DNA from: Mytilus trossulus | Lineage: Eukaryota | Assembly (NCBI RefSeq): GCF_036588685.1 | Contig: NC_086373.1 | Span: 97,526,001 to 97,590,000, forward strand | Reading direction: 5' to 3' | DNA: 64,000 nt | Part shown: positions 8,541-63,980 of the stretch, in pieces | How positions within the stretch are numbered: position 1 is the stretch's first letter | Layout: the number at the start of each line of letters is the position of its first letter | Notes under the pieces: model-generated | The model's database searches: none | What the model saw: the letters and a program-made list of their open reading frames with translations, nothing else | Told to the model about the DNA's origin: nothing | Position numbers and translations under genes: made by a program

Positions 8541-8571
8541 TTACATGGACGATGAACTTCTATAAACCTAC

Positions 8572-30278: not shown

Positions 30279-30382
30279 TACCTGAAACAATTTAGAATGT
30301 CATTAAGATTACTTTATTAATTTTTATTCTTTGCTGAGGTGATGTTTAATTATCGACGTTAACATAACCTATCCAATGTTAG

Positions 30383-37000: not shown

Positions 37001-38067
37001 GAAAATAATTCATAAAATATGTGGAGGTTCGTGGGGTGGTGAATGGGTCAACCAAGAGTATCGCAAATTACTTAAGAAACTGATAGGAGGAGATGTATTC
37101 CTGGAATTTAAACAAACACAAGGATTAGATTATAATGAAATGATGAGGTGCTTTGAAATCCTTCAAAGGAAATGAAAACTCTGATATATCAACTAGATTT
37201 CCAGCCAACTTAGCAGAGCTTTTAGAATCGAAGACGGATTGTAGTATTTCAAACATGATAGAAAATTCTCGCTTCAGTGGTAAACTTAGGGTGAAAAGAG
37301 ACAAACTATTCATCAATCGAGAACTATTTCAATCGTTTTACAGTGAATCAATTTCAATGACAATTAAAGAAATTAAAGATATTTTGAAGCATGACAGATG
37401 TCGTGACGTATCAGCTGTTATGTTGGTTGGGGGGTTTTCAGAATGTCCGATGTTACAGAAAGCTATTAAAGACGCGTTAGAATTAGAGGTTTTCATTCCA
37501 GTTGAAGGTGGATTATCTGTGTTAAAGGGGGCTGTAATCTATGGTCATGATTCTTCTATAGTAACATCTAGAGTGTGTAATTATACGTATGGCGTCAGCA
37601 TAAGCCTTCCTTTCAAGGAAGGAGAGCACCGAAGGGAAAAATATTATAGATGGGATAATGAAGACTGGTGTAAACACCTTTTTCATGTTTGTTTTGTTGA
37701 GGGTCAAGACGTTCGTGTGGGGGATAAAGGTATGATTGAGATTAATAATACTTTTGAAAGTGAAGATTCCAAAACTAAAAGAACGGAACCTTTTACTGTT
37801 GAAATTTATATTTCTGATGACAAAACGCCAATGTATGTTACAGACGAAGGATGCAACTTACATGCAAAAATTCATATCGACCCCCCTAATGGAATATGGC
37901 CTGTGCATGCCTTTGGATGGGTAGAACTTGAAATCGCTGGCACCGAAATGATAGGAACTTACGTGAACGCAAAAACAAAGGACCGAATATCAACGAGGTT
38001 TGAATTCCTTCCAACGGGTTATAAAACATTAAAAGGAGAACGTGAAAGAATGCATGCAATGGATTGA
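34054..38067 (+). pseudogene. HSPA12: HSPA12-like gene B with a frameshift in the last exon (pseudogene, null allele or assembly indel)
   Basis: Exons 34054-34377, 34646-34864, 36146-36305, 36952-38067. The exon-4 frame hits TGA at 37173-37175, and homology continues in the +1 frame (ORF 37153-38067). Alignment to gene C indicates ~11 nt are missing at ~37158. Confidence 0.82.
35514..35722. mobile_element. TA-flanked MITE in gene B intron 2
   Basis: TA|CTGTGGATTCA ... TGAATCCACGA|TA imperfect TIRs with internal TTCGTGG / CCACGAA repeats. Confidence 0.5.
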
Positions 38068-40960
38068 CAGACGTCAGAATTTCTATAAATGTTGTTCATA
38101 CTACTTTAAAAAAATTAAGAATACTAGTCATAATACTTGATTAAAATTGAAAGTCTTTTAATTCAGTTGCTTTAACATTAAATTTATATTCGGGATATTG
38201 TATACATTTGGCTTAATCGTTAAAAGAAAGTCGACATACAAATTTAGAACACAAATCAATTTAGGGCGCCTGATTAGGATCGTAATTTTTCCATTTGTTC
38301 AAATGGTTGATTTTCCAGGTTTGTTTTACTTCTGAGTTTTGAATTTAACTTGGAGTTTGTTCTTTTAGTAAATCTTTTTGTGTAGACGACAGTCTAATGT
38401 TAAATAATCAGTTTGGATCTCTGAGTGTGTCTTCTAGTTTGGTAATTCAGATGTGCTTTTTTTTTTAATTCAATGAATAATGAAGGGTACCACAAAGTTT
38501 GATTTGATATGACACAATGTGAATTATTATTTATCATTATACAGTATTCATAACAGCGCATTTTATAATATTAAAATTACCCTAAGCGCTCAAAAACATA
38601 TATGCATTTACATTTATAAGTATTAACAATAAAATATGAAAGCCCATGTTATAAAATCATAAAAAACAAACAGAATTTCAAAAAAATGCATATAAAACTA
38701 TTAAATTTACTGATAAACAATAAATTCTATATAAAATGGGTATGGTAAAGTTAAGGAGATATTAAAACCATACCAATAAAAGTAGGTTAAAACTTCAAAA
38801 ATATTTGCTTAAACATTGTAAAGTTACATTAAATGATGTGTGATCTCGTCTGAAAGATGAAATGCATGAGTATATTTTTCTTCGGTTTTATATTTCATTA
38901 CTCATGTGACAAGGCTGAATACTTTATATTTGTATTTTTGACATTACAAATGTTGTGTATAAAGAAATTAATGAAGAGGACATGATTGTTTATGTTTAAA
39001 TTCATAACGGTTAAACATGCGATTCTTAAGAGACCGTGCTTGGATGAAAATAAGGGACCCGTGCAAATTCTCTTATAAGCTATTAGAAACGGTAAAGAAA
39101 AAGGGAAAACAAAACCTTATCGCTTCAGTAATAAAGATATAAAGTACCAGTACAAATGAGATATCATTCTAATTGAAATCCATTCTATGATATGTTCAGT
39201 GTGGATTTAACATGATTTAGAATCGTATTTTACTCCTTATTACTAAAGGGGCGTGAAAGATATAAAAGGGAAATTCAAACTCATAACATAAATTGATAAT
39301 GCCATGGCTAAAAAAATCCAACAGACAAACAAGAGTACACAAAACATAACATAGAAAACAGGGATTGATATCAGATACTTCAGAGGAATTAACAGATCTT
39401 GCTCGACATGTGGCACCCATGTTACTCATGTTTTAATACAAACCCAGAAATAAGTATAATTCCGGAAGTCACATTTGAGTAAAAGGGAATTTACTGGTAT
39501 CTTATCAAGTGATGCTTGAGATTTGTTGGTCAGTATCGGAGTCAGTATTAGTTCAGCCAGCGTATCGCTAGAAGATTTTATTTTAGATTAGAGTTAAAGA
39601 AGTAAAACATTTGACATTGTTCACATTCGACTCGAGTGTTTGTTGAAAAATATAACATGCGATATTCAAATCATTGTTCAAAACACTAAATATTAGATTT
39701 GTATATGTAAAGTAACTTACTTCAGTTAATCAGATATTTAAGCAACTTTAGATATACATTTTGATAACAGCTTCCCGTTATGCTTCTCTAGATAGGTAGA
39801 CGTTGACGTTTGTCGTGTACCAAGTCAGGGATACAGCAGATGTTATCAAATAGACTGTGTCTACGTATGTCGTCAATTATGTTTGAGGGTTGTTTTGTAA
39901 CATTTTAGTGCTTCTGTTGTTCCGTTGTTTTCCTCTTATACTTGATGTGTTCCTTCGGTTTTGATTTGAGAGCCGATTGTGTTTCAGTTAAATCAGTTTA
40001 TGACAATTGAACAGCGGTATACTACTGGTATCTTTTTTAACAATCAGATGTCCACAAGGTCACGCTATTGTTAGTTGTTGTTTAGTTCTCAGAATTAGTA
40101 GCAAGTTATATAAAAAGCTTATTTGATATAAAATCATATGTACCTTTTTATTGTAGCGATTCCATCGTTTGTTAGTCCGAATAATTTATCCCTCGAGCGA
40201 GAGAATTATGTGTAAAGTATGTTTTCATTATATTATACCTAATTATATGTGCTATTTCAAATACTTAAAGTTTAAATATCGTATCTGATAATTAATATTC
40301 GTTACATATTTCTATAAAGTTACAAGAATTTAAAAGGTTTATCAGTCTGAAAATTTATTCCCTCCAGTGGATCATATATATATATAAACGTTTGACTGTG
40401 ATTTAATACCACTTCGTATTTTAGATAATGTATACAATTTGGCCAATTCTTCATTTTGAAAACTAATTAGTATAGAGTTAAAAAGAAAGTAACTGCAATT
40501 CATTAATTACCTGAGAATAATCCAGTTCCAAAGTCTGTTAGCAAGTTCAAGCTCGTCAGTCACGGATGTTATCAACTTCCTTGTCTATCTAATGGTCATA
40601 TGACGTCAGAAAAGAACTCTTCATAACTCAAGGTACAGTAGCATAATTTAATTAAGGTTTTAAATGGCTCTTGTTTTTTAACTTCCTTAAGTATATATTT
40701 TAGTACGAATTTTTTTTGTTAAATTCTTCACGATTGATAGCATATTTCCTTCTACAACCTCTTATTACGTATATCAAATAATCAGATATGACAAATTTAA
40801 ATCTACTGTGGCTGTCAATCAATAAAGTTTTAATTTTAAGTTTCAATGCTGTATATTTCAATAATTAAACTTCATGGGTGACAAGTAGCAAACTTATGTG
40901 GATTATATCTTGAGACTGAAATACATCATTACAATTTAAGGACTTTATACTCAAAACGGG

Positions 40961-43900
40961 ATGTCGAAAGTCAAAACAAGATTGGTTGTTGCAGCAATAG
41001 ACTTTGGGAGCCACGGATCTGGTTATGCTTTCTCTTTTCGACATCAATTTGATGCTAACCCAATTGATGTATCATCACCAATGTGGTCCCCAGAAAGCGG
41101 AGGTGACAGTTTTTATAAGACTCCATCGGCCATGCTGCTTGACTCCAATAAGAATTTGGTAGCTTTCGGACATGATGCAGAAGACCGCTACTCGGTAATC
41201 TGTGAGGAAAATGAACAGAATGCCTGGTATTATTTGAAGGGTTTCAAAATGAAATTATATAGAGCGGTGTTGGAAGAGAAGGTAAACAGTTTGTTTTATT
41301 ATCCTATAAATATTATCAAAGGTTTTCAATAATTGATCCCAAACGGAGTTCAATTCGGTTATATATTTTATATATTGATCATCAATAAGTACTAATCTAC
41401 TGTTGCTCTGATATATGTATTTATGAATAGTATGATAAGTTTTATATCGTACATACCTGTCGCTATCAAAAGCTGAATGTATATAGTAAATTAATTATCA
41501 CCTTGAATAGACATGCAACTGGTTGAGTACACTTGGTATCGTTGATGTATTATGAAAGTTTTATTACGTTCGCTTATTCTTTTGTTTGTCCGACCGTCTT
41601 ATTGTTCGTTTTTCATTTTACTTATGTAACCCAACCGAAGCGCTATTGTGTGACTTTTGGTAATAACTTTTGGAGGACATAGGTTTCGTCATATCCTTCT
41701 CATTATAGTACACATTTATATCCGTTTCAACTCCTTAACCCCTAATCATATTATGATGAAACTTTCTCACAATCTTTAACACATTGTATCAATTGTACCT
41801 CAGTTATTTTATTGGTCAAAAACTTTAAAATATAATTTCTACTGCAACTACTGCCACCACTACATCTACGATAATATAATATAAGAAATGGTACTAGTTA
41901 TAAACAGCAGGCACTGTGATAAAAGTTCACAAGATGTTATTCCCAACCTGTTTCCTAATGAATTTTTGGAAAAATATCCTTCGCTAAAGCATTGACTTTG
42001 TTATTGTTTTCTTTGGGTGTACCTATTTTTTATCCCAAATACATCCGAAGCCGTTCAATAATGAAACTTTCTCAGAATGTATATCATATAATGCCGTTGT
42101 GTAACTTATATTTAATGGTTTGAACGGAATTTTTTTAGAGCATATTCCTTACTAAAATATGCACATAACCAGAGCTTCATCTAGCGATACCCATTTTGCA
42201 CCCTCACCTTACCACTCCTCCTAAACCCTTCAGTAAAGTATATTGAAACTCTCTAACAATTTTCCCCAAATTAAAGCATTATGCACCAGCTATACAAAAG
42301 AACTAGTCAAAGATACAAGATGTATAACCGTGATCGCAAGACGCGCTTCGTAAACATAAGACTCAGCAGTACCGCTATAATAAAAAAAAGTGTTCAGGTC
42401 AAATAAAGTATGTAATTAAAGATTATTATTTGATTTCTGGTCGGATTATTTTAAGGGATTTTTAATTAGTAAATCATAGACTTGCCAGGTTGGGAATAAC
42501 ATCTTGTGAACTTTTATCACAGTGCCTGCTGTTTATAACTAGTACCATTTCTTATATTATATTATCGTAGATGTAGTGGTGGCAGTAGTTGCAGTAGAAA
42601 TTCTATTTAAAAGTTTTTGTTAATAAACTAAGGCCGTGTTCACATTGACCTACACTCGGTGTTGTGTTGGTGTAACTCACACGTAAACTAAACAAAATTA
42701 CGTTCCCATTGATAAAACTCAATGTTTACATGTAGTTTAAATCATGTTTTGTCGAAACGCAGTCGATGGTCAATGTAGGCCTTGTGTAGATTAAGTGTAC
42801 ACATAACAAGGTTTTTAGAACATGCATTTTACCATGTATATTTTTTAAAGAAGAAACGATTGTTAAATAAAATTGATATTCATAACAATTAGTAATAAAG
42901 TTCAGAAATATTTGTATAAACTACTTGATATATTTAATTGTTATAAAACAACTTTTATCAAGACTCAAAGTATCATCATTGCCGAACAAATAATTCGTTT
43001 GAAAAGTTCTTCCCTGATCGACTGCGCGTACACAATAATAGTTGCCACTGGTCTTAACTCAAACAACGATTCACTCATAAATACATTTGCATCGGAACTA
43101 AACACATTTATTCAAAAAACAGTTGTTGGCATGACACGGGTTATGTTATTCTCATATTGTTATGATGGTATGAAACTAAACCCTAATGGGAAGGATTGTG
43201 CCTGATATTCATATGATGAAATCATAATTTTCAATCAGTTTAATTGAAGTCTGGAGCTGGCACGTCAGTTAACTGCTAGTAGTCTGTTGTTATTTATGTA
43301 TAATTGTCATTTTGTTTATTTTCTTGGGGGGGGGGGGGGGGGGTTCTGAGTCAAATTTTTCGAGCTAACGTTCAAATATTTGTTTTCAATATTTAACACT
43401 GTAATAGATGGAGAAGCTCGGGATTCAAAATATTTTTTTTGATAATCTGTATGACCAGAATAATTTTTTCTTATCAAAATAGGGATAAGAATATTTTTCA
43501 AGGAAAAAAACATTCTCCCCTTTTTTAAGTCAAATTGTCGTTCCCCAACTTCTAGAAAACTTGTCCGAAATATTTGTCATTCGGTTCTATATTTTACGTT
43601 ATGAACATATAAATGACATATAGTTTACAAGAGTGAACAAATCTTATGTACAGGTAACTAAACAAGGTGTATAGATGTGAACAAATTTAATGTGAAACCA
43701 GGGTACACTACATTAAACTAATTGTAAACATGTTTACTGAACATGGCGTTAGGTGTGAACACGGCCTAATTAATGACTGACATGCAGTTAATCCATTTGG
43801 TGACAGGTTCGTGATTTGATCCAATACATTCAGGATCAAAAGTTTTGTTCCAAGTTGAAACTATGTGTATTTGCGGAAAATATTCAGTTGAAGGGGATAT

Positions 43901-46900
43901 TAATGCATAATCAACAAAATTACTGCGTTTAAAAAGTTGTACAAGATGTTAAATAATACTTCTCTCAATGAAATCCCCATAAAGGAAAAAAAACATATCT
44001 TAAAAATAAACTGAAAAACTTTTAAAGTTTATATTTGTTTTGTTCACACATCGTTATCAATAATATGGTAATTTTTATAAATTTCCTGTTTTCAAAACTT
44101 TGAATTTTTCGAAAAACTAAGGATGTTCTTATCCTAGGCATAGATAACCTTAGCCGTATTTGGCACAACTTTTTGGAATTTTGGATCCTCAATGCTCTTC
44201 AACTTTGTACTTGTTAGAATTAATAAATATTTTGACTTGAGCGTCACTGATGAGTCTTATGTGACGAAACGTATTAAATTATAATCCTGGTACGGTACCT
44301 TTGATAACTAATTATACTAGTGAGATGTATATTTAACTACAAAACCATAATTAATCCACCCTTTTCTACAAAGGAAAATGCCTTTAACAAGTCAGTAATA
44401 TGACAGTTGTTATTCATTCGTTTAATGTGTTTGAACTTTTGAATTTACTATTTTTAGAGACTTTCCGCGTTGAATTTTTGGGGAATATTTTTGTGATCTT
44501 ACGTTTAAAAATATATTCAACACACAGTATATTACCAGGTTAACATGCGAAAAGGAAAACTAATCCCTTTTCTTGGGGTCATAGATTGTAGTTCATCAAG
44601 ATTTTTGCAAATCAATTCGATAATTCAATCATTATTTTTTACTCTATACATTACTGTAGTATCAATAATTCAGTGTACAAACTGAAATATCCAAAGGTGA
44701 AATAATTCTTTATTCTCTCATTTTTTCATTCATTCATTTATTTATTTATTCGTATTCATTTTAGTACACAATCAAGTGTTCAAGCACTTTCTCAATCAAG
44801 TATAGATAAAACTCACGGTTGAACTATTTAAAGCTTTTAAGATGATTTGTTTTTGAAATATCCGATATTCTCTTCTCTGATTTTCAAACACAATATAAGA
44901 GTGCATGTGAAAGATTCGTTCCTGGATCTACGTGTATTCAAATATCTCAACATTTATTCAATATAAAGGACCAATAAATTGTTTAGTAATGTAGATTTTA
45001 CTAGTATTGTTGTAAGATGTAAAGATACCGTTTGCTTTTATACAAGTTTTGTGCACTTCAGTAATTATGTTTGAAATTGAACTGAATTGAACTCTGTTTT
45101 CATCACAACTTACGTAATCATCAGAATTTGAATTACATGCATTTGAATTGAGGTTTGTGCTCAATTAAAGGAGACTGTTACGTCAAAATTATATTGCGAA
45201 AGATATGTTAATACATTGGGTATATACAAAAATCTGTATGCATCAATACTCATTCTATTTTCACTGATATTTAAAAAATTTAATCAAATTTAAGATGATT
45301 CTCCGAGATACTAATAGGAAGAGTTATAGTTTAACGATTTGATACAATGGCGATTGGATAGATTTAAATGTAGGATTCCCACGAACTTAATGATAACAAG
45401 AATTGTATCATGACAAAGCTCACAAAAATACCTCATTTTTTCTCATATTTGAATAAGTTTTGCCTTTGAATGAAAATTTCATAGTGTTGATATAAATTGC
45501 TTTTCAGGATATTCGAAAAGATTTTGAAATGAAAGATATCAATGGTAAAGCTATATCAGCCAAATTAGTTATAAAACTCGCAATTCAGTACCTTAGAAAA
45601 CATTTACTTGACCAGTTTGAAGAAAGAAATATTGGAGTTGATGCAAATGATATAGAATGGGTTATAACAGTCCCAGCTATTTGGAATGATGCATGTAAAC
45701 AGTTTATGAGAGATGCAGCAGAAGAAGTGAGTACCAAGTGTGTCCTGGTAGTACGAACTAAATAACAAGCAAATGGTCCTAGTAACATATAAGCCATAGA
45801 AGCGAGCAATTGCATACAATGTGGTATATGGAATGGTGCGTATGACTATGAAGGACTGCCATTGACTCAAAAATGGAAACAACGATAGTTAAAATGCATT
45901 TAAATATATAAATCACATTAATAAACTAGGAAGCAACAAGAACTCAGTATGGTACAAGACTAGGTGTTCCGACAAGGTAAACAAGCGAAGTTGACACATT
46001 TGTCATTAATCCTTTTTTAAAGTCCCCCATCTATATCGAGGAGAAGATCAACATAGGAAGCTCACCTTCTATTTTTTCGGATATGTCTTCAATGTCACGC
46101 TAACTGGGATAGATGTCAGACAAGCACTACATGATATGCTGTTTTTATGTACATGGTATTATCAATATATTTAAATGAGAAATTAAACTAGTTGGCAAGA
46201 TGCTTTCTTGTTTATCTCTTGAGAGCAGATTTATTTTAAATGTTGCTACATACGAATAAAAAAAGTATCCAATCAAATACCAAATATTTGTTGTAATCGT
46301 TTTTCTAAAAACTCATCTACTATGTTGTTGATCAAAGTTCTGGTATATTTATGTCTACGTGATTGATCATCGCCTATGTAACTAAAAAATTATAGAAACA
46401 GGATAGAACAAAAACTTTAATATCACATGTTGGCAAACTTACGTTTAGGATGGAATATATCAATGCTCTTCAACTTTGTACTTGTTTGGCTTTACAAATA
46501 TTTTGATATGAGCGTCACTAATGAGTCTTATGAAGACGAAACGCGCGTCTGGCATACTAAATTATAATCCGGGTACCTTTGATAACTATTTACTAATCAA
46601 TATTAAAAATTCTAGATAACAGTTATGTTTTAATATACAAAATGCCAACTATAAGCGATAAACATCAAGTATGCCTAGGGTTACATAGTGAATAGATATG
46701 CATTAACAATAAAACTTATTATATTTCAGGCCGGTATACATGGTGATATGTTTTCCATTGTGTTCGAACCGGAAGCTGCATCTGTTTATGCTAGGCTTTT
46801 ACCAGTTGAAAAATTCATGGGCGAAAACAAGTCGACTATTCTGAAGACTTTTGATCCAGGAACTAAATTCATTGTTGTAGATGCTGGAGGTAAGACCTTT

Positions 46901-48304
46901 TTTTACAGGGACGAGAATATTGTAAAGTTTAATTCTAATACAAGTTAGAGTGATTTTCCACTGTTTTATATCGTCATAGTGAAAGTAATGAACTACTGAA
47001 TTATCAACTTGAAATATCAAATACTGTTGTTATCATAGATCTTTATAATTCAAATGTCTTTGTGTTTTAAATGTTCTGTTCAAACAAGAACTTTAATTAT
47101 AGAAATCTATGTTGTAAATATAGTAAAATACCTAACCAGATGATACTTTAATTAATATATTGTAGGCGGTACAGTTGATATTTCTACTCAAGAGGTCGCA
47201 CCGAACGGCGAATTAAAGATAATTCACAAAGTATGTGGAGGCTCTTGGGGTGGTGAAATGGTCAATGAGAAATATAGAATTGTTCTCACAAAACTTGTTG
47301 GAGGTCCTGTTTTAAAACAATTTAAAAGGGAACAAGGAGCAGATTATAATGAGATGATGAGAGATTTTGAGCGTAAGAAGAAGACATATAAATTAAACAG
47401 TGCAGAAACTGTTAATACTAGATTTCCTGTTTCACTAAAAGATATTATAGCCGATTCTGTAGATAGTTCGATTGAGAGTATAATAAACGAATCGACTTTT
47501 AAAGGTGAAATAAGCACAAAACGTGATAAAATGTATATAAAACCCAATTTGTTTCTAACATTTTTCAAGGAATCATGTAATCTGACAGTCGAAGAAATCA
47601 GATCTGTTCTCAACCATCCACGTTGCGAAGACGTCTCCGCTATAATGATGGTTGGTGGGTTCTCAGAGTCTGAAGTTTTACAAGATGCTGTCAAAAAAGC
47701 ATTTCCAAAATTAGACGTTTTTGTTCCGGTAGATGGAGGTCTTTCTGTTCTTAAAGGTACTGTCATTTATGGACATAATCCAAACATCGTTGCTTCGCGA
47801 GTATGTAACTATACATACGGTGTTAGTTTAAGTGTTCCGTTCAAAACAGGGGTTCATCCTGAAAGCAAAAGATATACTTGGGATAAAGAAGACTGGTGCC
47901 GGCATGTATTTCATGTATGTTTTACGGCCGATGAGGATGTTAAGATAGGGGATATTAGACAAATTGAACTGAACGACACGTTTGTTACCGCAGATTCTCA
48001 ATGTAGACGAACACACCCGCTCAGAGCAGAAATATATATTTCTGATAAGCAAGATCCAAAGTATGTTACAGATGATGGCTGCCAAAAACATGCCGTTATT
48101 CACGTGAAACCACCCGGGGGACAGTGGCCTGAACAGGTCTTTGGGTGGGTAGAACTAAAAGTAGCGGGAACTGAAATGATTGGAACCTATGTAAATGCCA
48201 CAACAAAAGAACGGACTTCAACTAAGTTTGAATTTCTACCTTCAGGTTACAAATTCACCAAAGGAGAAAAGAAAAGATTGTTTGATCCCGCGGCCTCCGA
48301 ATGA
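40961..48304 (+). CDS. HSPA12: Heat shock 70 kDa protein 12-like, gene C (~612 aa, intact)
   Basis: Exons 40961-41281, 45508-45726, 46730-46889, 47166-48304 (1839 nt), all GT-AG. Motifs: AIDFGSHGSGYAFS, WVITVPAIWND, FEPEAAS, DAGGGTVD, GGSWGG, VGGFSES, SVLKGTVIYG. Confidence 0.93.
41817..42619. repeat. 134-bp inverted repeat pair in gene C intron 1
   Basis: 41817-41950 is the reverse complement of 42486-42619 with two mismatches, both near the outer end. Confidence 0.9.
42632..43766. mobile_element. PIF/Harbinger-type MITE with nested insertions
   Basis: 13-bp TIR GGCCGTGTTCACA / TGTGAACACGGCC with TAA on both sides (42629-42631 and 43767-43769). Confidence 0.75.
44080..44312 (+). mobile_element. 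Retrozyme family-1 fragment in gene C intron 1 (hammerhead 3' half deleted)
   Basis: GCGTCA-CTGATGA-GTCTTATGTGAC-GAAA-CG followed by a deletion, at 44241-44272. Flanks match the reverse complement of 57895-58390. Confidence 0.65.
46460..46592 (+). mobile_element. Retrozyme family-1 fragment in gene C intron 2 (core reads CUAAUGA)
   Basis: GCGTCA-CTAATGA-GTCTT ATG AAGAC-GAAA-CGCGCG-TC-TGGCAT at 46512-46555. Confidence 0.65.
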
Positions 48305-48320: not shown

Positions 48321-48600
48321 CGTATACACGCCACCCGCGTTTCGTCTACAAAAGACTCACCAGTGACGCTCGAATCCAAAAAAGTTAAAAATGCCAAATA
48401 AATAACGAAGCTGAAGAGCATTGAGGACCAAAATTCCTGAAAGTTTTGCCAAATCCAGCTAAGGTAATCTATGCCGGAGATAGAAAAGCCTTAGTATTTC
48501 AAAAATTCTAAATTGTGTAAACATATATTTTATAAATATAACCATATTAATGATAATTCATGTCAGCACAAAAAGAGCTGACTACTGGGCTTGTAATACA
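48321..48600 (-). mobile_element. Retrozyme family-1-related monomer just after the gene C stop codon
   Basis: Hammerhead-shaped motif at 48328-48369 (CUGGUGA core, damaged stem III), followed by body sequence homologous to 57980-58190. Confidence 0.65.
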
Positions 48601-50666
48601 CTGTTGTTTCAAGTTACACGTCTTACAACAAAAATGAAAGTTAGGCATGTAAAAAAATTGAAAACTTGGGTATCTAAATATTTTCATAAATGCAAATATG
48701 GCTATGAAATATATGTATAAGATCATTTAAATGTGGGTGTGTTGATATAAAACAATTTAAATGTGTTTTGTTTTTTTATTTTTTACAAATTGTGATTCTT
48801 AAATCTTATAAATTAAATGATTAAAACCAATCATAGTATAGACATATTTCATTCTACATTCATAGGATTCAATTCTGATATGGTAAATAATTATTGAACG
48901 AAAATGTGGCTTATATAGATAGCAAATTATGATCATATACAAATTATATAACAGAAGAAAAAATTGTGTAATTTCGTCTGCTAGAATTTAGAAAAGTATT
49001 ACACATGGACATAATGTTCCCTATAACATTAAGGTATTCCACACCCCATAGTACACATAATTGTCAAATAGAAATTACTGCTTTACCTGTAATCAGCCAT
49101 ACAACTTATCAGTTGATCAGTTAAATCAAAATTAAATTACATGGGGGACTATTCAAAGTATTCCAACCTAGTTGAACCAAAACAAGTATCTTTCTTTACC
49201 AAATTATTCCTTAATCCTTCAAAGTATAGTTTAGCCATAATAAAAAGAAGTATATAACAGCAAAAGAATGTCATAAACAGTTTTGTATAAGTCTGTACAC
49301 ATTTCAGGCGAATTTTTTATTGTTGAGATAGTGTCAAGACATATTTAAGACTGTCAAGAATGTGTCGAGACATATTCAGACATTATTAAGAATGTCAAGA
49401 ACGTGTCAAAACTTATTCAGACATTATTAAGAATGTCAAGAATATGTCAAGACAGATCGAGACAAATTTAAGACAGTCAAGAATTGGTCGAGACTAATCC
49501 AGACTCTTATCAGATGATACAGAAAGTGTCGAGAAATTTTAAGACAATGTTCATACTGTCAATACACTTGTCATGAAAAACCAAGCACCTTATTAGACAA
49601 ATTCATACTATGTCAAGCATTTTTTTTTAAATAATTCAGACAAATTAAGAATGTCGAGTAAGAATTAATTCAAATTCAGACGATAACTGGTCTTTCAAAC
49701 TATTTGACTTTTGTAGTGAGATTTGTTAGAAATTTTCCAATGAACTATCAACCAGGCCATGTGAAAATTAATGAATTATTTCAGTTCTTATTTTTTTTTT
49801 TTAAATTAAAAGTTAACGATGTTTATAGTTATTATATGATACATCTTAACAATAATTTGGAGTACAGTAAATATATAATCATATTCAAGATAAATATACT
49901 TAAATGAATTCCATACCCCCCCCCCCCCCAAAAAAAAAACTAATATTATACGTCTTTTCTCAAATTTAGAAGCTTGCACAGATATTTAATGTCTGTCTTA
50001 TTGTGTGTTCTTTACATAATTAATGTTGCCTGTAGAATACAATAATTTAAAACTTAGTTATCAGAATTCTCTCCAAAATTGTTTTGTTTCTGGATATTCA
50101 AAAAGTTTATGCTCTATAGTTTCTATTTCATTACAACTGTCAACTTCATTAATTAAGCAAAGTTTATATTTTCCGGGAGATAATTATGTGAGACAATTCT
50201 GTGTAATATTTTATATTGGAAAGCTTGTAGTTTGCTTTCTATAGTACATTTAAAAGCCAATGAATAAATATTTTTCCATTTTTCGTCACTAATTTCTATA
50301 TTTTAAATTACTTTCAACCTTTGATGTAAAATAGGCTGATCGATAAAAATGAATAAACATCTGTAGCAAATAATTTACTGATAGGCATTTTTTTTATTCT
50401 CATGCTCAAAAACGAATCCAAATGACATATGAGTTTCTGTTAGGTGACATGTGTTGTTGTACTAGCAAGTCTTTTTAGTATCGTGGTATAGCAAGTTTAA
50501 TAGATAGAATGTCTACAAAAGAAACATTCAGGTTATATTTTTGGTTAATAGCGTCATCAGACAAAATCAATCGACTTTATTATCTACAATTTCATTGAAA
50601 AACCTTATACCTTTCATGTACCTAGGAATCTAGTAGTGTATGGTTGTTCTATTCAGCCTTGTAATA

Positions 50667-52187
50667 TACTGAGTGCCAATGAAAACGCAACACTTGTAAA
50701 TTTCAAATATTTTAAAATATATAATTATTTTTTTTTAAATGATTACCTATATCGGATAGAAAATGAATCGTCAGACTTCTTTCGAAATCTTTACGCTTGA
50801 ATGATTTTAGAAAAAAAGTTACGTGCTTGGTTACAAAAAAGGGGGATGAGTCGAGTGCACCGCTATTTAACGCACGAGTGATTTTCTCATTGTGTGTTTT
50901 GAAAATCGCTTAAGAATTGAACTTTCCCATCCTTTTTTGTTAGCCGCTGTAATAAACTAAGCCGTAGATGCCAAGACTTTTAGACAACCAGAGACATGAA
51001 GTTTGGTGCATGGTGCAAGGAGGCATTTCAAGTCGTGAAATTGCACGCAGAATGCATTGTTCAGCTTTAACAATTACCAGACTTATCCAAAGATTCAACC
51101 AAACTGGGTCTTTGAATGATAGACCACGTCCCGGAAGACAGAGAGCAACTACTGCCCAGCAGGACCGATACATTCGTCTTCAGCATCTGCGAGATCGGTT
51201 CCGTACGGCTGTCCAAACAGCACGGGAGACTGTCGGCGTCCATAGGAGACAAATTGGAGCAAACACGGTAAGACGCCGATTGCGCAGCAGTGGATTGAGG
51301 GCACAGAGGCCTTTCCGTGGTAACATGCTGACAGCAGTACGACGCCAAAATCGCTTAAGATGGACACAACAGCATCAGAGATGGTCACACAGGCAGTGGA
51401 CAACTGTCCTATGGACGGACGAATCAAGATTCCATCTTCGCCGTAGTGATGGACGAACTCGTGTGTGGAGACGAAGAGGAGAACGGTATGCAGATTCGTG
51501 TATCCAAGAGACAGATTGTTGGGGAGGTGGTAGTGTCATGGTATGGGGAGGAATATCATTCAACCATAAAACTCCTCTCATCACTATCAATGGCAATTTA
51601 AACGCTCAACGCTACATTGATGAAGTTTTACGACTGACCGTTATACCGTTCATGGTTGGACATCAAGATGTTAATCTTGTTCAGCAAGATAACGCTCGTG
51701 CACACTCCGCACGACTCACAACTGCGTTTATCAACAACAACCATGTTCAGACATTACCATGGCCAGCCTTTTCGCCGGATTTGAGTTCAATAGAACACTT
51801 ATGGGATCAAATTGGACAAGCCGTAAGACGACGACAGCCACCACCAGTTACGCTGCGCCAACTCGAAATTGCATTGCGAGAAGAATTGACAAACATTCCA
51901 CAACACCGTATCCGACGTCTGGTCAGGTCAATGCCACGTCGTTGTAGAGCTTGCGTTGCAGCACGCGGTGGACACATTCGTTATTGAGACTGTGAGTTAG
52001 TGAATTTTAGCGTTGTGTTGCATTAATGAATTGCATTCGAATCGTGGTAATTAAACATTTTTGGTTGAGTTTTATCTTTGGATAAACCCTTTAACTGTCT
52101 TTAACAATTACTGTAAACAAAATATTATTTTTTATAAAAATGCTATTTCTAAAAAACTTAGTGTTGCGTTTTCATTGGCACTCAGTG
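50667..52187 (+). mobile_element. Full-length Tc1/mariner DNA transposon (DD34E)
   Basis: 28-bp TIRs (T/C)ACTGAGTGCCAATGAAAACGCAACACT at 50667-50694 and 52160-52187. TA duplication at 50665-50666 and 52188-52189. Internal transposase ORF. Confidence 0.95.
50968..51987 (+). CDS. Tc1-family transposase, 339 aa
   Basis: N-terminal HTH plus RPGR linker, then VLWTDESRF, VMVWGGI, QQDNARAH and WPAFSPDLSSIEHLW. 34 residues lie between the second D and the E. Confidence 0.95.
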   Translation: MPRLLDNQRHEVWCMVQGGISSREIARRMHCSALTITRLIQRFNQTGSLNDRPRPGRQRATTAQQDRYIRLQHLRDRFRTAVQTARETVGVHRRQIGANTVRRRLRSSGLRAQRPFRGNMLTAVRRQNRLRWTQQHQRWSHRQWTTVLWTDESRFHLRRSDGRTRVWRRRGERYADSCIQETDCWGGGSVMVWGGISFNHKTPLITINGNLNAQRYIDEVLRLTVIPFMVGHQDVNLVQQDNARAHSARLTTAFINNNHVQTLPWPAFSPDLSSIEHLWDQIGQAVRRRQPPPVTLRQLEIALREELTNIPQHRIRRLVRSMPRRCRACVAARGGHIRY

Positions 52188-53547
52188 TATAAAACCCATA
52201 AATTTCAAACAAGTTTGCATTAATTGATTCTAAAATAACATGTACAAACTACCCTCGGATAGGTTAAAATTTTGTCATTAATTTTGTCAAAGCCACTAAA
52301 TGAAAAATATGAAACAATTCAGATGAGGAAACTAATGGCCTAATTCAGAACATCACAGTTTACGAAAACGCAAATATGACAAACATGAACCAACAATAAA
52401 TACTGGAGTACAGAATCCAGATTTGGGACAGACACATACAGAATGTGGTGGGGTTAAACGTTAAATGTTTGGGAACGCTGAACCGAACACCCTAAAATTG
52501 GACAGTGGTGTAACAATCAAATGTAAAGAACAAGTTATAAAAATCTAATGAAAAAGGCTTTCTCATTTTTATATCGATTAGACAGTTGGTTTTCCCGTTT
52601 GAATTGCAATACACTAGTAATTTTTTTTTTGCGGTTTGCTAACATTTTGGATATTCGGGAGACTGTCAAGCGAGCCTCCGACATTCGCATTTCTTACTTG
52701 GTACAGGAAATGTTCTATGTAGAAAATGGTGGATTAAAACTAGCTTTGCTACTAGTAGTGCAAGGCTCTTTTGATAATAACATTATCAAGGATAAGGGTG
52801 TAAGTTGTTATCTAAAAGACTAAGAAAACACAAAATGCTTATATTTTCTTAAATTCTTCATGCTAAACAGCATTCTAATATGATATGCTTCTTTCGCTTT
52901 GTAAACAACGCCGTGATAAAATTCTCGATATATCTATACTTAGCACAGATTCACAGATACACATAATAATTGATGTTACAATGTACCTACCACGTAATTC
53001 CACATGTATTGGAACCTATTTGCAATCGTTTTGCCGAATTTATTGTTTAAAAAATGGCTATTAAAAACAGACTAAGAACGTTTTTTCTTATTCGGATGCA
53101 TAATAAAAAGAATTATTGCAGAGAAGAGCTCGGAAAAAATCAACCAAATCAAAATAAAAGAAATTCCGCGCAAGTCTATTATTATTTATCATGACGTCAT
53201 AGAAATGGAAAAGTTAGAATGTAAGGTTTTCAGTTACGTGAACCAACGAAATTCTTATAATATTGTATATATATTTACTTATTTCAGCAAGTTAATATAG
53301 CGGCTCCTTAGTTACGAAATGTCATCTTTGGATTTGACAAGAAAAACGTGTGATTTAACAATATCTTATGCTGGGTTTAAAACATTAAACAGATTTTTTT
53401 CTAGCGTTTATTCACGAAATAGTCCATGCAAGCGGGGAGTTCATTAGAATGTTTGAGCTTCATTTAACAGGGAGTAAAAAAGAACAGCCAGACACACGGC
53501 ATCCTACTCTCGCTTCAGTTTTTTAATGGACGTATTTGTCCTATTAA

Positions 53548-56610: not shown

Positions 56611-57894
56611 GGAAAATAGTTTGGCCTGAGCCACGCTTATCACAGCCTTATTGGGCTATGGTATCATGTAATAGCGCAAATGATCATCACGAAAATCGAT
56701 ATTTTAGAAGAAATTTAAAAATTTATTGCTTGAAATAAAATTGTATATTTATATGTAGTAACCCTCAGAAATTAAAGGTACCTCCCAACTTCTCCTTCAT
56801 CCCCTAATTTTTTTTTATAGGGTTTCTTGCTTTCTTAAAAAATTAAAAGGATTATATAAAGGCTTGGTTATATGAGCACAGTTTATCCCTTATTCTCATT
56901 GGATAATATTTTGTTTTGTGAATTTGCGCAAATAAATGTTCACAGAATATGTGATAGCAAGTAGTTATTTAATAAAATCTCATTTTGCTTTTAAAATGTA
57001 TAACTTTTATACGTTCAACGTTACCATTTAACTTCTATTTACCAAAAAATTTAATTCAACATCACATGGGAGAAAATGACTCAAGGGGTAAAGAATTTAA
57101 ATCGTTTTGGTGCGCGGTCTTCCGGTTATTTTTATATTTATATAGCCAAATTCATCTTCTAATTTCAACTTGGACGGAAATTTCTTGATAATTTATAATT
57201 TTCCTTATTTCTCAACATACAATTTTGTTACAAATCAGGTCAGTACGGGTATATCATATGGTTTCAGTCATTTACACATTTTGAAGATATTGCATGGCTG
57301 ATTATGTCTGCCGTTTAAATTTTCTATCTTTCGAGATAATAAGTAGAAACCCAAAATTAGTAAAACATTGACGTTGAAATGCAATAACAACCAGAGGAGT
57401 CACCCAAATGGCCAATGGTTTCAATCGGTTAACCTTTTTTATATCTTTTATTGCTGGTCAACATTTTAAATCAACAGTCAAAAACCATGCAAATTATCCT
57501 GAGATAGGTAAAACAACGAGAGTTCACCACAGCAGAAGGGAAAAGATATGTTTGAACTATTGAAATAGTGGTTTGTCTACCATGCAATATCTTAGAAATT
57601 TATCAATTGCAGTTGGTCATACGTGATCAGGACATTCATTTCATTCAACAGGTTGATTTGATTATTATTCAATTCTGGTGGAAATTAATCACTAAAAGGT
57701 GAGCTCATGAAAATCTTTATAAAGCCTGTCTCCAAAATATTTTGGCAAATAGTTTTAAAAATTTCAACGAATGACATTCCTGACCATTTAGTATACTAGT
57801 AGTTTCCTGAATGAGATCATAATATGAAGTCTTGATGAATAATGAATTATTGATGAATAATGAATTTAAACGTATTGCTAACCCTTATGAATCT

Positions 57895-58390
57895 GAAATA
57901 GTGTTCAAAGGTACCAGGATTATAATTTAGTACGCCAGACACGCGTTTTGCCTACATAATACTCATCAGTGACGCTCATATCAAAATATGTGAAGCAAAA
58001 CAAGTACAAAGTTGAAGAGCGTTGAGAATCATTAATTCCAAACAGTTGTGTCAAATACAGCTAAGGTAATCTATGCCTGGGATAAGAAAATCCTTATTTT
58101 TCGAAACAAAAACCCAGGAAATTTATAAAATTTTCCTCATTATTGATATTCATGTCAACACCTAAGGGTTGACTACTGGACTGGTGATACCCTCGGGAAC
58201 GAAATGTCCACCAGCAGTGACATCAACCCAGTGGTGTAAATAGTGATCAAAGGTACCAAGATTATTATTTCGTACGCCAGACGCTCGTCTACATAAGACT
58301 CATCAGTGACGCTCATATCAAAATATTTATAAAGCCAAACAAGTACAAAGTTGAATAGCATTGAGAATCAAGAATTCCAAAAAGTTGTAT
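57895..58390 (-). mobile_element. Head-to-tail hammerhead-containing repeat (non-LTR retrozyme-like, family 1), ~342-bp period
   Basis: CAAAGGTACC recurs at 57906 and 58248. Each unit carries a hammerhead-shaped motif GCGTCA-CTGATGA-stem II-...-GTC-TGGCGT (57932-57975 and 58274-58312). Both motifs have core lesions. Confidence 0.75.
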
Positions 58391-58546
58391 ATTATTACAA
58401 TTTGCATTCAGCTATCAAAATATAAAACGAAAACCTATATAGATCCCAGCACTTGTTCTTACTCCTCATTTTACATTACAAGGATATGCACAGCAGTGAA
58501 TAGAAAATAGAATACCCATATGTATAAAATTTAAAAAAGGTAGATG

Positions 58547-59031
58547 TTACAAACCTTTTGGTCTACTGTAATTAAATGGTACTCCTAGTGTGTTAAATGT
58601 AGCAACACTAATTTTCTTTGATTTTCTGTTTTTAAAACGACTAATAATTTCTGTGCCACCAATTTCAAGTTCGAAATCTGCTGTCCATTCCATTAGCCAT
58701 CCTTTGCCATCAGGTGGTGGAATTTGCATTTGTCCAAATTTCATACAGCCTTCTTCATCTATAAAATTAGGATTTATCTCAGTTGATAAGTGTAAATCGG
58801 GAATGTGCGGTATGCGTCGTTTTATTTGTCTTTTCTAGTCTTTGTATGAATCTTTAAGTGCGACTGAACTTTTGCATCAACAGAAACTTCTTGATTAATT
58901 GTGAATAATTTTTTGGAATAATCTCTGCACCACTCTTTCCCCTCCTCTTTCAGTCTCTTTGAGTCCGGGTCGCCTTTTTTTAAAGTTCTATAAGATCGAA
59001 TGCCATAGGAATATTTCGCCATTCTTTATAT
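58547..59031 (-). pseudogene. Truncated HSPA12-like pseudogene fragment E (3' ~480 bp of the last exon only)
   Basis: Homologous to the C-terminus of genes A and D (MAKYSYGIRSYR...QIPPPDGK...FELEIGGTEII). Two 1-nt deletions and an in-frame TAG fall around 58800-58875. No upstream exon-4 sequence is present. Confidence 0.85.
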
Positions 59032-59269
59032 CAGATTTTTGACCAATTTTCTAGACTACTACTAAAGAAGTTACAATCAAATTGTTTAATAAAGCATATG
59101 GGAATAATGAAATCAATTATTTTTAAAGTTGGAAAAAAAACTCGTTGGATACTTGAGGAAAATAACGTGATTTAAATGGTCTTTTAATTTAACTACTCTT
59201 TTCGGATCAGTACATATCAACAAAATCTTATAAAATAGAGTTTTTCTTACTTAATTAAATGGTCCATCG

Positions 59270-59460
59270 AAACATTTCGGCAATAAACTTATGAACAGGT
59301 TGTAGGTATCCCTATGAGCACCAAAATGTACTTCTTTATATTAGATATTTTTATTGTTTTTATGAATCTTGCCTTTGGGAAAATTCAGTAAAGATCCGTC
59401 TTGAGTGCATTTATATAACATTGATGATATGTTTGCTTAGATAACCAAGAATGTTCTCAT
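59270..59460 (+). mobile_element. Ancient Penelope-like RT remnant; paralogous copy at ~23430-23600
   Basis: QVVGIPMST... (degenerate GIPMGTNCAP) and ...IDDMFA.DNQE motifs. Confidence 0.5.
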
Positions 59461-60451
59461 ACTCTTAGCCTTGAAAAGATGGCTTGGCAATACACCTCTA
59501 CAGGAAGTTAGAAAAACCCTTTCATGTAATCGCTCTTTTAACTGTCGAAGTTGTCTAAAATGCAATTGGTAGATGAGCTAAATGATGCTATAAGTAGTTG
59601 ACAATAAACAAAATTACTTTTGATTTATCAAACATTCTTTTATTACGATTTGAATAAAAAAATCGAATTTTACCACATTTAAACAAATATTAACACATTT
59701 TGTAAACTGTGTTAACAAAATTAGTATGCAATTTAATTCATTTAGTTTAAAATAGAGTTATACTTCTTTTCATGTTAAGCGGATATGCATTTTACATTCA
59801 ATTTTTTTTTTTTTTTTTTATTTTTCATTAGAAAAACTGATGGAGTTATATACAGTAAACCAGGAAAGAAATGTGCGATTTGTTTACTTTTCTCTCCTTT
59901 CAATTCAGTCATAAACGAAAAGATGTTTAAGGGGTCTGTTCCTTCAATAACTAGGACTGAAACTTAGAAACTGTAAGATTAATCTTCAAAACTATGCACT
60001 ATTTTTCTTTGTATTTTTTTTTATTTGTATTTTGTGCACGAAAATCATACCACAAAGTATATATCAAAGAGGATATGGATGGGGTCCTACGTTCCTCTAT
60101 GTTGTTATTCTTTTGGGGCCGTCTTCCTATAGAAAATTTGTTCCAATCGTTCTCCGTTGTTTGTATTTTAGCGCTCCATTATTCCCTTTTTCTACCGATT
60201 TCTATTCTTTATATTGTGGGTCACTTTTTTGATAGTATTACTAGTACATCCTCCTCTTGTTAATAAACTCTATTTAGGCCCTCATAAATTGTGAATAAAC
60301 CTACTATTCATATCATTATTTATGAAAACATCGCGTCTTTCTTTAAAAAAAAATATTTATCAGTCATAGCATGTCAATCTCACGGAAAACAAAGTTGAAT
60401 TATCAATATCATAATTAGAGCACAAAAAGATGTGTGTGTCCATAGCAGTCT

Positions 60452-61578
60452 TCACAAAGCCTTTGGTGTAGTGTAATGGAATGGTACTCCGAGCGCATTT
60501 AATGAAGCTATAACTGTTTTTCCCGAATTTCTGTCCTTAAAACTGCCAATGATCTCTGTACCACCAATTTCGAGTTCAAAATCACCTGTCCATTCCATTG
60601 GCCATTCTTTGCCATCCGGTGGTGGAATTTGAACTTGTCCTAATTTCATACAGCCTTTTTCATCAATAAAATTTGGATCCTTCTCAGTTGTGAAGTACAG
60701 ATCAAGGGTATGTTTCATTGTTCGTTTGGCTTGTCTATTTTTATCTTTGTAAGAATCTTTGATTGCCACTGCACTTCTTTCACCAACAGAAACTTCTTGA
60801 TTAATTGTGAATAGTTTCTGAAAATTGTCTCTGCACCACTCTTTCCCCTCCTCTTTCAGTCTCTTCTCTACCGGGTCGCCTTTTTTGAACGTCCTGTATG
60901 TTCGAATACCATATGAATATTTCGCCATTCTTGATATCACAACATTTGGATTATGCCCGAATAAAACGGCTCCTTTCAGTACTGCAAGTCTTGCTTCTGT
61001 CGGAATGATGACCTCAATATTTTCAAAAGATCTATGGTTGCGTATTGCGTCTGCAACTATCAGTGATTCTGAGAACCCCCCAACCATAACCAATGCAGGT
61101 GAAACATTGTCAAAGTTTCTGTTCTCTAGAACTTTTTCTAAATGTAAGAGAATTTTTAGAGTCGTTTCCTTAAAGAAGCCGATAAAAATTCTTGCTTTGA
61201 TGTGTAGTCTATTTTTCTGTTTATCATTCACAGACACCATATTTCTATGTGGTGATGATTCCATAATATCGGCAATAGTTTTCCTTTTGTTTTTGATGAC
61301 TTCCATTACACCAAACGGCATCCGTATAACAACATCGTGACCCCCATCCGGTGTGACTTTTCGTTTCTGTTCTTCAAATTCTTGTTGAATTTCTAAGAAA
61401 TCGCTTCTATAATCTCTGCCAATTTCCTCCATAATGTTGTTCCCCAAAACTTCATCTAAAAATTTTAAGAATTTGATATCAATGATGGTTCCTCCCCAGT
61501 CTCCTCCGCTGGCTCTATCAATAGTTTTTATACTGTTGTCATGTGTTACTTCGTTAATTGATATATCTGCAGTTCCAC
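60452..61578 (-). CDS. HSPA12: HSPA12-like gene D, terminal exon (upstream exons not found in the window)
   Basis: Acceptor TTCCAG|GTGGAACTGCAGAT at 61579/61578. The 1127-nt exon is open to TGA at 60452, with the same length and phase as gene A exon 4. Confidence 0.9.
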
Positions 61579-61608
61579 CTGGAACAAAAAACGTGTACTT
61601 ATGTTTTT

Positions 61609-61715
61609 CAGTTTTTCAAGACATGTTATATAACAGTTTTGCAAGACATGTTATATAACAGTTTTGCAAGACATGTTATATAACAGTTTTGCAAGACATG
61701 TTATATAACAGTTTT
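61609..61715. repeat. 25-bp VNTR, 4 copies
   Basis: (GCAAGACATGTTATATAACAGTTTT)x4, containing the palindrome TGTTATATAACA. Confidence 0.9.
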
Positions 61716-62435: not shown

Positions 62436-62912
62436 TACAGATCTATCATTGTTGCGTTGATGTTTAGACGAGTTTTTTATACATAATGTACACAGCCATG
62501 AATCACCATCATTACTGGTGATCCGATGGACAAATATGTTGTAGAGTTGTCACAGACTCAGACGTACTTATAAATATAATTATTTTCTGTGACTGTATCT
62601 TGCATTAATTTGTAGGATCCTTTACTATAGATAATTGAGCTGATCTGTACCAATCAAATATCCATGCCTTATATATAATGTACTGTAGTACGCCGCTAGA
62701 TTAAAACTGACGAGGAAAGGTAACACACGGCCACTAACAATTTTATTTTGAAGCCCAGATGGTTGTTTGGTCTAGCGGGACGCGATTTGGTCTCACGATA
62801 TCTCAGAAGCATGGGTTCGAATCCCGGCGAGGGAAGAACAAAAATTTGCCTTCTTACAGATCTAACATTGTTGGGTTGATGTTTAGACGAGTTGTATATA
62901 TATATATATATA
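62436..62912 (+). mobile_element. tRNA-related (Pol III box) repeat unit of ~419 bp with a hammerhead-like remnant
   Basis: TACAGATCTA.CATTGTTG.GTTGATGTTTAGACGAGTT recurs at 62436 and 62855. A-box-like TGGTTGTTTGG at ~62760 and B box GGTTCGAATCC at 62814-62824. CTGACGA at 62707-62713. Related fragments at ~12725-12860 (+), ~14340-14500 (-) and ~55715-55830 (+). Confidence 0.65.
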
Positions 62913-63204
62913 TATGAGTCTGAAATATTGTGTAACAATACCGATAAATAGATGATAAACAAAACACTAAAAAGTGTTGAATATCATTGCACAAAGATGG
63001 AAAAACTGACCAGATGATATAAATTATACAATAATTGCAAATATTTCGGTTCAAGAAATGGCCTTCTTCGGTGACAAAAGTTTTAACAATAATGATATAT
63101 AATGTATAAGGTGTAATCATAGATCAGTAATAATACAGGTAAGTTTTGGTCGATTGATTTTAATCCAAAATCCTGATTATAATAATATAAACACAAGACT
63201 GTAA

Positions 63205-63980
63205 ATTTAATTATTTCTTTCTATTGATTCCATCTGGATGGAGGACACCCAGTTTTTTTATCCAAAACTTCTCCCGATTTTCTCTTTGCCTATTTTGCCA
63301 TGTACAATCCTGTTCGATCACAAGGATCTTCATTATATCAAAATCTTTCAGATTGTGATCTGGTAACCTGAAGTGTTGGCTAACAAGAATATACGGTATT
63401 TTTGTGAGGTCACTCCTGTGGCCATTGAGGCGTTTGTGAAATGGCTGCATAGATTCACCAACATATTGGAGACCACATCTAGGACTCTAAAGAACGTAAA
63501 TCACGTTTGAGCTTTTGCAGTTGACATTGCAGAAGATCTTGTATGTCTTTTCTGTGGTCTTACTGTGAAATGTAGATGAATGCTGTAATTAGTTGCAACA
63601 TTTGCAGCGCTTATCCCAACTAGGCTGGCAATTACCTACAGTATGGTTAGGTTTGGAAAGGTCAGCACGGACAAGTATATTTCTCAGGCTGTTAGGTTGT
63701 TTGAAGGCAATCATGGGAGGCTCAGGAAAGATTTTGGATCATTGATATAGATACTCTCAAACATTTAAAACCTGAAAATTCAAAACCTGGGCGATTCTAC
63801 CTGCTCCCTAAAATTCATAAACATGGTAACCAAGGAAGACCAATCGTCTCAGCTAATGGTCATCCCACCGAAAAAATATCCGAATTCGTTGATTACTATC
63901 TTCGACCACATGTAGAAAACTTGCCATCTTTTATAAAAGATTCTACAGATTACATACTAAAAATGCAGGATTTAAAATCC
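63205..63980. mobile_element. Penelope-like element: GIY-YIG end on the minus strand (63211-63740) fused to an RT segment on the plus strand (63750-63975)
   Basis: Minus: [19 protein letters not shown]...RCKCC...NCKSSNVIYVL*..CGLQYVGES.QPFHKRLNGHRSD...REKFWIKKL...PDGIN. Plus: [12 protein letters not shown]...[37 protein letters not shown]. Confidence 0.85.

Follow-up and report, generated by a model that had tools for sequence, protein, structure and literature searches.

Layout of the Insertion

The window, by which we mean the whole 64-kb stretch of DNA analyzed here, is AT-rich animal DNA and carries at 57896–58388 an insertion of 493 nt that comprises two hammerhead remnants and one full monomer, or about 1.44 units of a direct repeat. 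The hammerheads are oriented on the minus strand, and self-comparison of the window places the truncated 5′ end of the insertion at 58388 and its 3′ end at 57896. Within it, 57896–58049 aligns with 58238–58388 at 85.9% identity over 156 nt (E 3e-47) with an offset of 342 nt. The monomer, counted from cleavage site to cleavage site (57938–58279, minus strand), is 342 nt long, has 37.7% GC, and is noncoding, no ORF of at least 90 aa overlapping it; its fold is weakly better than that of shuffled sequences (z = −1.84, with 3 of 100 shuffles equally stable). Beyond the downstream cleavage site, an extension of 42 nt (57896–57937, minus strand) runs on and stops at the common 3′ end of the family, which makes it a candidate start of reverse transcription. 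Self-comparison of the window returned no LTR-like pair, and no tRNA gene was found within the 64 kb.

An earlier note on this DNA, made from the letters alone, had described a head-to-tail repeat of ~342 bp without giving its strand. The period of 342 nt stands, but the repeat does not form an array, and Tandem Repeats Finder did not report it at 57896–58388. Furthermore, 342 nt is the length in this particular copy; three relatives contain 13, 13, and 15 more bases in the part compared, implying a family unit of about 355 nt.

Contigs from four of 24 listed runs, two of DNA (X1 and X10) and two of RNA (X19 and X21), were aligned to 57500–58540. Both junctions of the insertion occur without differences in DNA run X1, so the insertion exists as genuine DNA, with the reservation that X1 itself may come from the source sample. 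A contig of X10 reaches 30 letters into the element from the left flank, one letter fewer than needed to count as bridging, and thus gives no more than a hint that the insertion is common to organism B. No empty-site joint occurred among the 15 joints listed out of 579 in the contigs of the four runs. In all four, contig depth is limited to 57896–58388, save for single-copy depth on the flanks in the two DNA runs. The family is present in high copy number, with 54,372 DNA contigs on the element in X1 and 43,423 in X10. RNA contigs (341 in X21 and 408 in X19) fall on the element only, with depth 0 on both flanks; such contigs reveal no strand, RNA ends, or circularity, and their depth may represent DNA carry-over or copies inside host transcripts. 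In X21, 11% of the pieces continue into unlike sequence.

Hammerhead Lesions and the Intact Family Motif

Both hammerheads of the insertion are broken. The upstream one (u2, 58274–58312, minus strand), with a predicted cut between 58280 and 58279, has suffered a 5-nt deletion across the GAAA/stem III junction, while the downstream one (u1, 57932–57975, minus strand; predicted cut 57938/57937) carries G12A, two changes in stem II, and one change in the stem III loop. Neither is complete, although the earlier note gave each unit a type I hammerhead layout, and the copy is predicted from its letters neither to cleave nor to give a circle. Family contigs restore five letters at 58284, the site of the u2 deletion, and the u1 lesions at 57941, 57949, and 57951 are minority letters among them. 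At these three sites, which were among 40 of 125 rows listed, the intact letter accounts for 85–97% (X1), 87–97% (X10), 96–100% (X19), and 57–88% (X21) of depth, percentages that express summed contig depth and not shares of copies. The two units have three letters in common that 2–4 outgroup copies do not have, and their differences amount to 14 and 10 private columns, a pattern that fits a single copying event followed by independent decay.

All five solo fragments listed in the earlier note are present in the window, as established by self-comparison and motif search, and each has a core lesion. Positions being counted from the cleavage site, they comprise 10887–11011 (minus strand, −82 to +33/34, core U4A), 42307–42392 (minus strand, about −55 to +33, heavily decayed), 44055–44313 (plus strand, −211 to +42, stem III and cleavage site deleted), 46460–46593 (plus strand, −88 to +42/44, core G5A), and 48328–48602 (minus strand, −256 to +6, core A6G with the UC triplet lost), the last of which adjoins the stop codon of an HSPA12 exon. 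Together with 57896–58388, they amount to six family-1 insertions within the window. Two of the fragments, 10887–11011 and 48328–48602, agree in several letters at which the remaining family-1 copies differ and seem to form an older subfamily.

Rfam Hammerhead_1, the model by which the hammerheads were to be checked, returned no match at 57896–58388 but did hit 10919 (29 bits) and 46512 (27.3 bits), both below the gathering score of 34 bits. A pattern of core plus stem III was found six times in the window versus 0.66 expected, a count reached by none of 100 shuffles, and a strict core descriptor was passed by one of nine hammerhead-like copies in the window, at 12163–12206. The neutral chance of a core lesion in six of six tested copies is ~0.34, so neutral decay is explanation enough, and the idea that active ribozymes are selected against near genes was rejected.

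The copy passing the strict descriptor belongs to a second hammerhead family (12133–12253, minus strand), whose motif at 12163–12206 has an intact core and four compensatory pair changes relative to family 1. A decayed partner is located at 6848–6969 (minus strand; 74% over 123 nt, E 2e-13), and sequence likeness between the two stops near +36. Neither member of this family was in the earlier note's list. Across six aligned motifs, four pairs have both bases changed, a number reached in 0 of 500 shuffles; all four are due to the one second-family copy.

A scan of metagenome contigs with a 21-nt motif outside the ribozyme retrieved two further loci, L001 and L002. L001 holds at 145–188 a natural copy with 12 of 12 pairs and the entire core (Rfam 33 bits, E 9.5e-6), whereas L002 has substitutions in the motif. 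The type I layout deduced for the family is confirmed by L001, where the core is complete, and the intact letters dominate contig depth at the three u1 lesion sites. A family lacking an intact core, which the earlier note had named as refuting its reading, is therefore not what is observed. In both marine metagenome contigs, the mussel-type retrozyme pieces (L001 1–222 and L002 1158–1467) are joined to bacterial-looking genes, and these junctions are probably chimeric assembly of host DNA. Additional scan matches, 0 and 2 in viral contigs and 13 in prokaryote genomes, were dismissed, all 15 being chance matches in GC-rich DNA.

A Common 3′ End and Variable 5′ Ends

The six family-1 insertions begin at widely different points and stop at nearly the same one. 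Taken in the order 57896–58388, 44055–44313, 46460–46593, 10887–11011, 42307–42392, and 48328–48602, their 5′ ends lie at −451, −211, −88, −82, about −55, and −256 relative to the cleavage site, and their 3′ ends at +42, +42, +42/44, +33/34, +33, and +6. Five of the six therefore stop at +33 to +44, with 48328–48602 the sole exception. The chance of five of six ends falling within 12 nt is 3e-5 on a 342-nt circle, or 6e-4 if the fragments must hold the hammerhead, for a 12-nt window that was picked after the data had been seen. The 3′ end of L001, at ~+41, weighs little here since its junction appears to join the mussel repeat to bacterial-type sequence.

The contigs display the same boundary. 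The loose end with the most support falls at 57905 (+33) in each DNA run (533 contigs for X1, 363 for X10), a pile-up that may collect copies ending anywhere from ~+33 to +55. The tails have a median length of 224–255 letters, and their consensus tracks the family for ~11 bases more before dissolving. Other loose ends among the best six per run (1586 lie beyond these) have for the most part short tails that stay within family sequence; those at the 5′ edge, 58388, run on into the monomer's own sequence.

All family-1 copies span the cleavage site, from which we infer a circular or an uncleaved multimeric template and not a cut linear monomer. The common 3′ end agrees with reverse transcription that is initiated internally, in the manner of Penelope, on RNA that extends across the cleavage site. 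The family-1 copies exhibit the corresponding insertion signature of a fixed 3′ end, variable 5′ truncation, and partial tandem arrangement, and both 5′ truncation and partial tandems have been described as hallmarks of Penelope-like elements (PMC8557442). We would give even odds to the more specific proposal that mussel retrozymes possess a fixed internal start of reverse transcription ~42–44 nt past the cut, at the same position in two hammerhead families.

The same family, decaying in the same manner, might have spread by another route, namely with a LINE-type RT or by excision and re-insertion of satellite pieces at the DNA level, a fragile or A/T-rich breakpoint then accounting for the common 3′ end, or through a Penelope-like RT working on uncleaved, linear read-through RNA. 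We regard these routes as improbable, even though the window data do not separate a circle from an uncleaved multimer and an anole Penelope-like protein mainly uses uncleaved RNA, with ribozyme cleavage being dispensable (PMC11167929). LINEs as well as PLEs have been named as candidates (PMC7229834), and LINE-like duplications of 15 bp are reported at Nematostella repeats (PMC4918200). A LINE, however, would be expected to begin at the physical 3′ end of the RNA, which is the cleavage site and not +42, and no poly(A) tail was present at the ends examined, nor any target-site duplication at the junctions of eight insertions; such duplications are optional, and the copies are old. Breakage of DNA, for its part, would not fix the 3′ end while leaving the 5′ ends free in two hammerhead families. 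An inverted 5′ piece was sought within 120 nt of the same eight insertions and not found; the copies are too few to resolve two end classes. Missing duplications and inverted pieces, the deviating end at +6, and the want of clear homology to local Penelope-like 3′ regions count against the Penelope-type reading.

Penelope-like Fragments in the Window

The five Penelope-like fragments noted earlier proved to be real by tblastn and profile search, and three of them are Naiads. These three comprise the frameshifted C-terminal part of the RT of a Naiad-type element at 2738–3241 (plus strand; tblastn E 5e-42 to proteins with an N-terminal GIY-YIG and a C-terminal RT), a frameshifted linker of Naiad type that contains the CxC and DKA motifs at 32813–33424 (plus strand; 93% to P0001), and a very decayed RT fragment covering the RT4 motif region at 59125–59361 (plus strand). 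The last is recognized by the Naiad profile at E 3e-5, where a profile search of the shuffled window gives nothing below E 0.5; a six-frame Pfam search of 59000–59900 yielded no match. Both the N-terminal GIY-YIG and the C-terminal RT are found in eight of nine relatives of the Naiad-type fragments scanned. A sixth fragment, absent from the earlier note, is a decayed Naiad RT piece at about 45990–46265 (minus strand; profile E 6e-6).

The remaining two fragments are of another type. A decayed, short GIY-YIG fragment at 13606–13845 (plus strand; tblastn E 1.5e-10) is nearer to the C-terminal-endonuclease (Neptune-type) set, with a profile E of 8e-12 versus 3e-3 for the Naiad profile. At 63214–63738 (minus strand), a Penelope-like element of the canonical, Neptune type is represented by its 3′ portion with the GIY-YIG end (93.7% to P0067, E 8e-107; PF01541 E 4e-4), the label Neptune reflecting domain order and a cysteine-rich linker, not a tree. 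An inverted RT piece adjoins it on the plus strand from 63738; in relatives, the order is RT followed by GIY-YIG. None of the Penelope-like fragments in the window encodes a whole RT.

The 3′ UTR of the Neptune-type element contains a decayed minimal type I hammerhead (63034–63077, minus strand) with the extra base before helix II and the position beside an RT/endonuclease ORF that characterize the pLTR type. It is the sole match in the window of a relaxed descriptor, which was composed after the motif had been seen and gives 0–2 matches in each of six shuffled windows. The element as a whole (63034–63974) has an internal inversion at 63738 and runs into a (TA)n tract at ~62890–62915. The junction between the two resembles the 3′ junction of the retrozyme, 17 of 19 bases being alike between 62913–62931 and 57886–57904 (E 0.36); the likeness is probably due to chance and possibly to a common target preference.

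Given these neighbors, the repeat could be conceived as the pLTR of a larger Penelope-like element, the fragments being its 5′-truncated 3′ ends and the 1.44 units a partial tandem. We consider this highly improbable. The unit joins back onto itself after 342 nt and lacks an ORF, the loose ends at 58388 lead back into the monomer, and the motif is of the canonical form, lacking both the extra base and the minimal helix III described for pLTR hammerheads (PMC4209133); these features outweigh the facts that Penelope-like 3′ ends typically stop at a fixed point and are truncated to varying extents on the 5′ side and that Xenopus retrozymes are reported to be homologous to pLTRs (preprint 10.64898/2026.07.22.740005). 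The nearest Penelope-like fragment, moreover, is a Naiad ~740 nt away, past an HSPA12 exon piece. Comparison of the monomer with the 3′ regions of the local Penelope-like fragments revealed no clear homology, two of the three regions matching no better than chance. An A/T-rich stretch of 44 nt does match between the monomer and the Neptune 3′ UTR (1 of 300 crude shuffles), but it is not colinear with the hammerhead and was disregarded.

That the locus is an active tandem retrozyme which releases a circle of 342 nt and whose Penelope-like partner is encoded in the window is scarcely credible: two hammerhead remnants of the right spacing and orientation, family sequence in two RNA libraries, and five real Penelope-like fragments, one of them hammerhead-bearing, would suit such a locus, but both cores are broken, RNA depth on the flanks is 0, the RNA contigs carry mostly intact family letters and not those of the locus, no whole RT is present, and Naiads make up three of the five fragments. 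The earlier proposal that both halves of the system reside in the window finds no support, given the broken ribozymes, the missing whole RT, the share of Naiads, and a partner RT that acts in trans. As it does so, proximity is expected by chance and is uninformative on partnership; the Penelope-like fragments are likely to be chance neighbors. Naiads are described as having no canonical hammerheads and as being very abundant in Mytilus, where they account for a large part of all Penelope-like copies, with 3,782 3′ ends and 86,269 fragments counted (PMC8557442).

Other Features of the Window

An HSPA12A-like exon cluster extends over both strands of the window (26014–27162, 29964–30299, 33952–38067, 40940–48304, and 58547–61615) and includes a duplicated block, 22989–27147 versus 58557–61585. 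The best named relative of the ORF at 47156–48304 is HSPA12A of Mytilus coruscus (84%), and an unnamed protein matches at 94%. A partial copy of an HSPA12A-like exon is situated 160 nt upstream of the retrozyme at 57896–58388, on the same strand.

Further mobile DNA is represented by a Tc1/mariner-type element at 50664–52190, which has inverted ends and an open transposase frame of 339 aa (50968–51987; DDE_3 and HTH). A dispersed repeat with about ten copies was also observed (868–1044, 3989–4125, 5851–6119, 13965–14067, 16711–17278, 22175–22467, 28413–29298, and 44314–44515), the copy at 44314–44515 directly adjoining the 3′ end of a retrozyme fragment at 44313. An open frame at 8414–9211 (minus strand) encodes a TIR domain (PF13676, E 1e-9).

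Proposed Origin of the Insertion

With a probability of roughly 0.8, we read 57896–58388 as a 5′-truncated, noncoding copy of 1.44 units whose two type I hammerheads are both broken, likely a dead insertion from the mussel retrozyme family of high copy number and likely the work of a Penelope-like RT acting in trans. The assignment to metazoan non-LTR retrozymes with a canonical type I hammerhead, made in the earlier note, is supported. The family has a canonical hammerhead and a head-to-tail unit within the range of 150–450 bp, it is noncoding with a GC content under 45–50%, and its many copies are dispersed; it also fits the cloned family of M. galloprovincialis (PMC7229834). The host, judged by its named protein matches, is a Mytilus-type mussel, and the unit of ~355 falls within the published 350–390 bp. 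Because host, size, motif type, and copy number agree, the copy very probably belongs to the published Mytilus retrozyme family (GenBank MN642551–MN642576), as judged from these four properties. Overall, what the earlier note had observed was confirmed in part, and its interpretation found partial support.

A dead retrozyme copy mobilized in trans could have arisen as follows. Read-through transcription of intact members at other loci would yield RNAs that cut themselves once per unit, and a host ligase would close circles of ~355 nt, as published for the M. galloprovincialis family. A Penelope-like protein would then nick AT-rich DNA, and reverse transcription would begin at a fixed internal site ~42–44 nt downstream of the cleavage site. 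Copying would pass the cleavage site, go round the template, and halt at a random point, after 493 nt at 57896–58388 and after 80–275 nt elsewhere in the window, as judged from the ends. Once inserted, u1 and u2 would decay independently.

Retrozymes of this class, the mussel family, and the hypothesis of a Penelope link have all been published, and the locus itself is of little weight, being a dead copy of a family that has very probably been characterized at the bench. The useful lead is the common 3′ end: internal initiation by a Penelope-like RT predicts a fixed end downstream of the cleavage site. The link between retrozymes and Penelope has so far consisted of co-occurrence (PMC7229834), plus pLTR homology in Xenopus (10.64898/2026.07.22.740005), and a review of metazoan retrozymes states that no conserved motif indicates the mobilizing element (PMC7761336). 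A fixed 3′ end of retrozymes was not found in the literature searched, outside of which lie most subscription papers and repeat-database entries. If real, the fixed start would be the missing cis signal that lets a Penelope-like protein prime on circular RNA, which offers no 3′ end, and would provide a direct means of identifying the partner element.

Comparison with Known Systems

The closest counterpart is the retrozyme system of M. galloprovincialis (Cervera and de la Pena 2020, PMC7229834), for which ~5000 type I hammerheads in two similar families and repeats of ~350–390 bp have been reported. The repeat self-cleaves with a kobs of about 0.1 per min, circles are plentiful in gonad and mantle, and RtcB-type ligation was described for a cloned monomer of 353 nt. 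The family described here resembles that system in its mussel host, canonical type I hammerhead, noncoding head-to-tail units of ~350 nt, low GC content, thousands of copies, and more than one similar hammerhead family. It differs in that the copy at 57896–58388 is truncated and, by its sequence, catalytically broken; furthermore, a fixed 3′ end is not among the features described in the main text of PMC7229834.

Vertebrate non-LTR retrozymes (Li, Clavereau and Pollet 2026, 10.64898/2026.07.22.740005) likewise occur as tandem beside solo copies and together with Penelope-like elements. Most Xenopus copies are reported to be inactive, one of nine dimers tested having cleaved, and with both hammerheads broken, 57896–58388 falls outside the definition of an "active" retrozyme used in that preprint. 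The vertebrate link to Penelope is built on pLTR homology and co-distribution, whereas that in the mussel window is built on the geometry of the ends. With respect to Rfam Hammerhead_1 (RF00163), the family has the same core, stem II, and palindromic stem III, but none of the copies encountered attains the 34-bit gathering score, the best (L001) scoring 33 bits. The features of pLTR hammerheads, which are minimal, have an extra base before helix II, and adjoin an RT/endonuclease ORF, are absent at 57896–58388. In the Penelope-like fragments of the window, all of them incomplete, domain order and diagnostic motifs agree with those of the Naiad and Neptune clades (Craig et al. 2021, PMC8557442).

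A parallel for the ends is Poseidon of Anolis carolinensis (Frangieh et al. 2024, PMC11167929), whose genomic copies likewise stop at set internal positions downstream of a hammerhead, with AT-rich targets and copied RNA that extends across the cleavage site. In vitro, the anole Penelope-like element was found to start at fixed internal positions and to use AT-rich targets and hammerhead-spanning RNA. Poseidon, however, is autonomous, has a minimal, protein-assisted hammerhead, and uses two start sites 111–118 nt into the ORF region, whereas the mussel element is noncoding, has a canonical hammerhead, and displays one apparent end ~42 nt past the cut.
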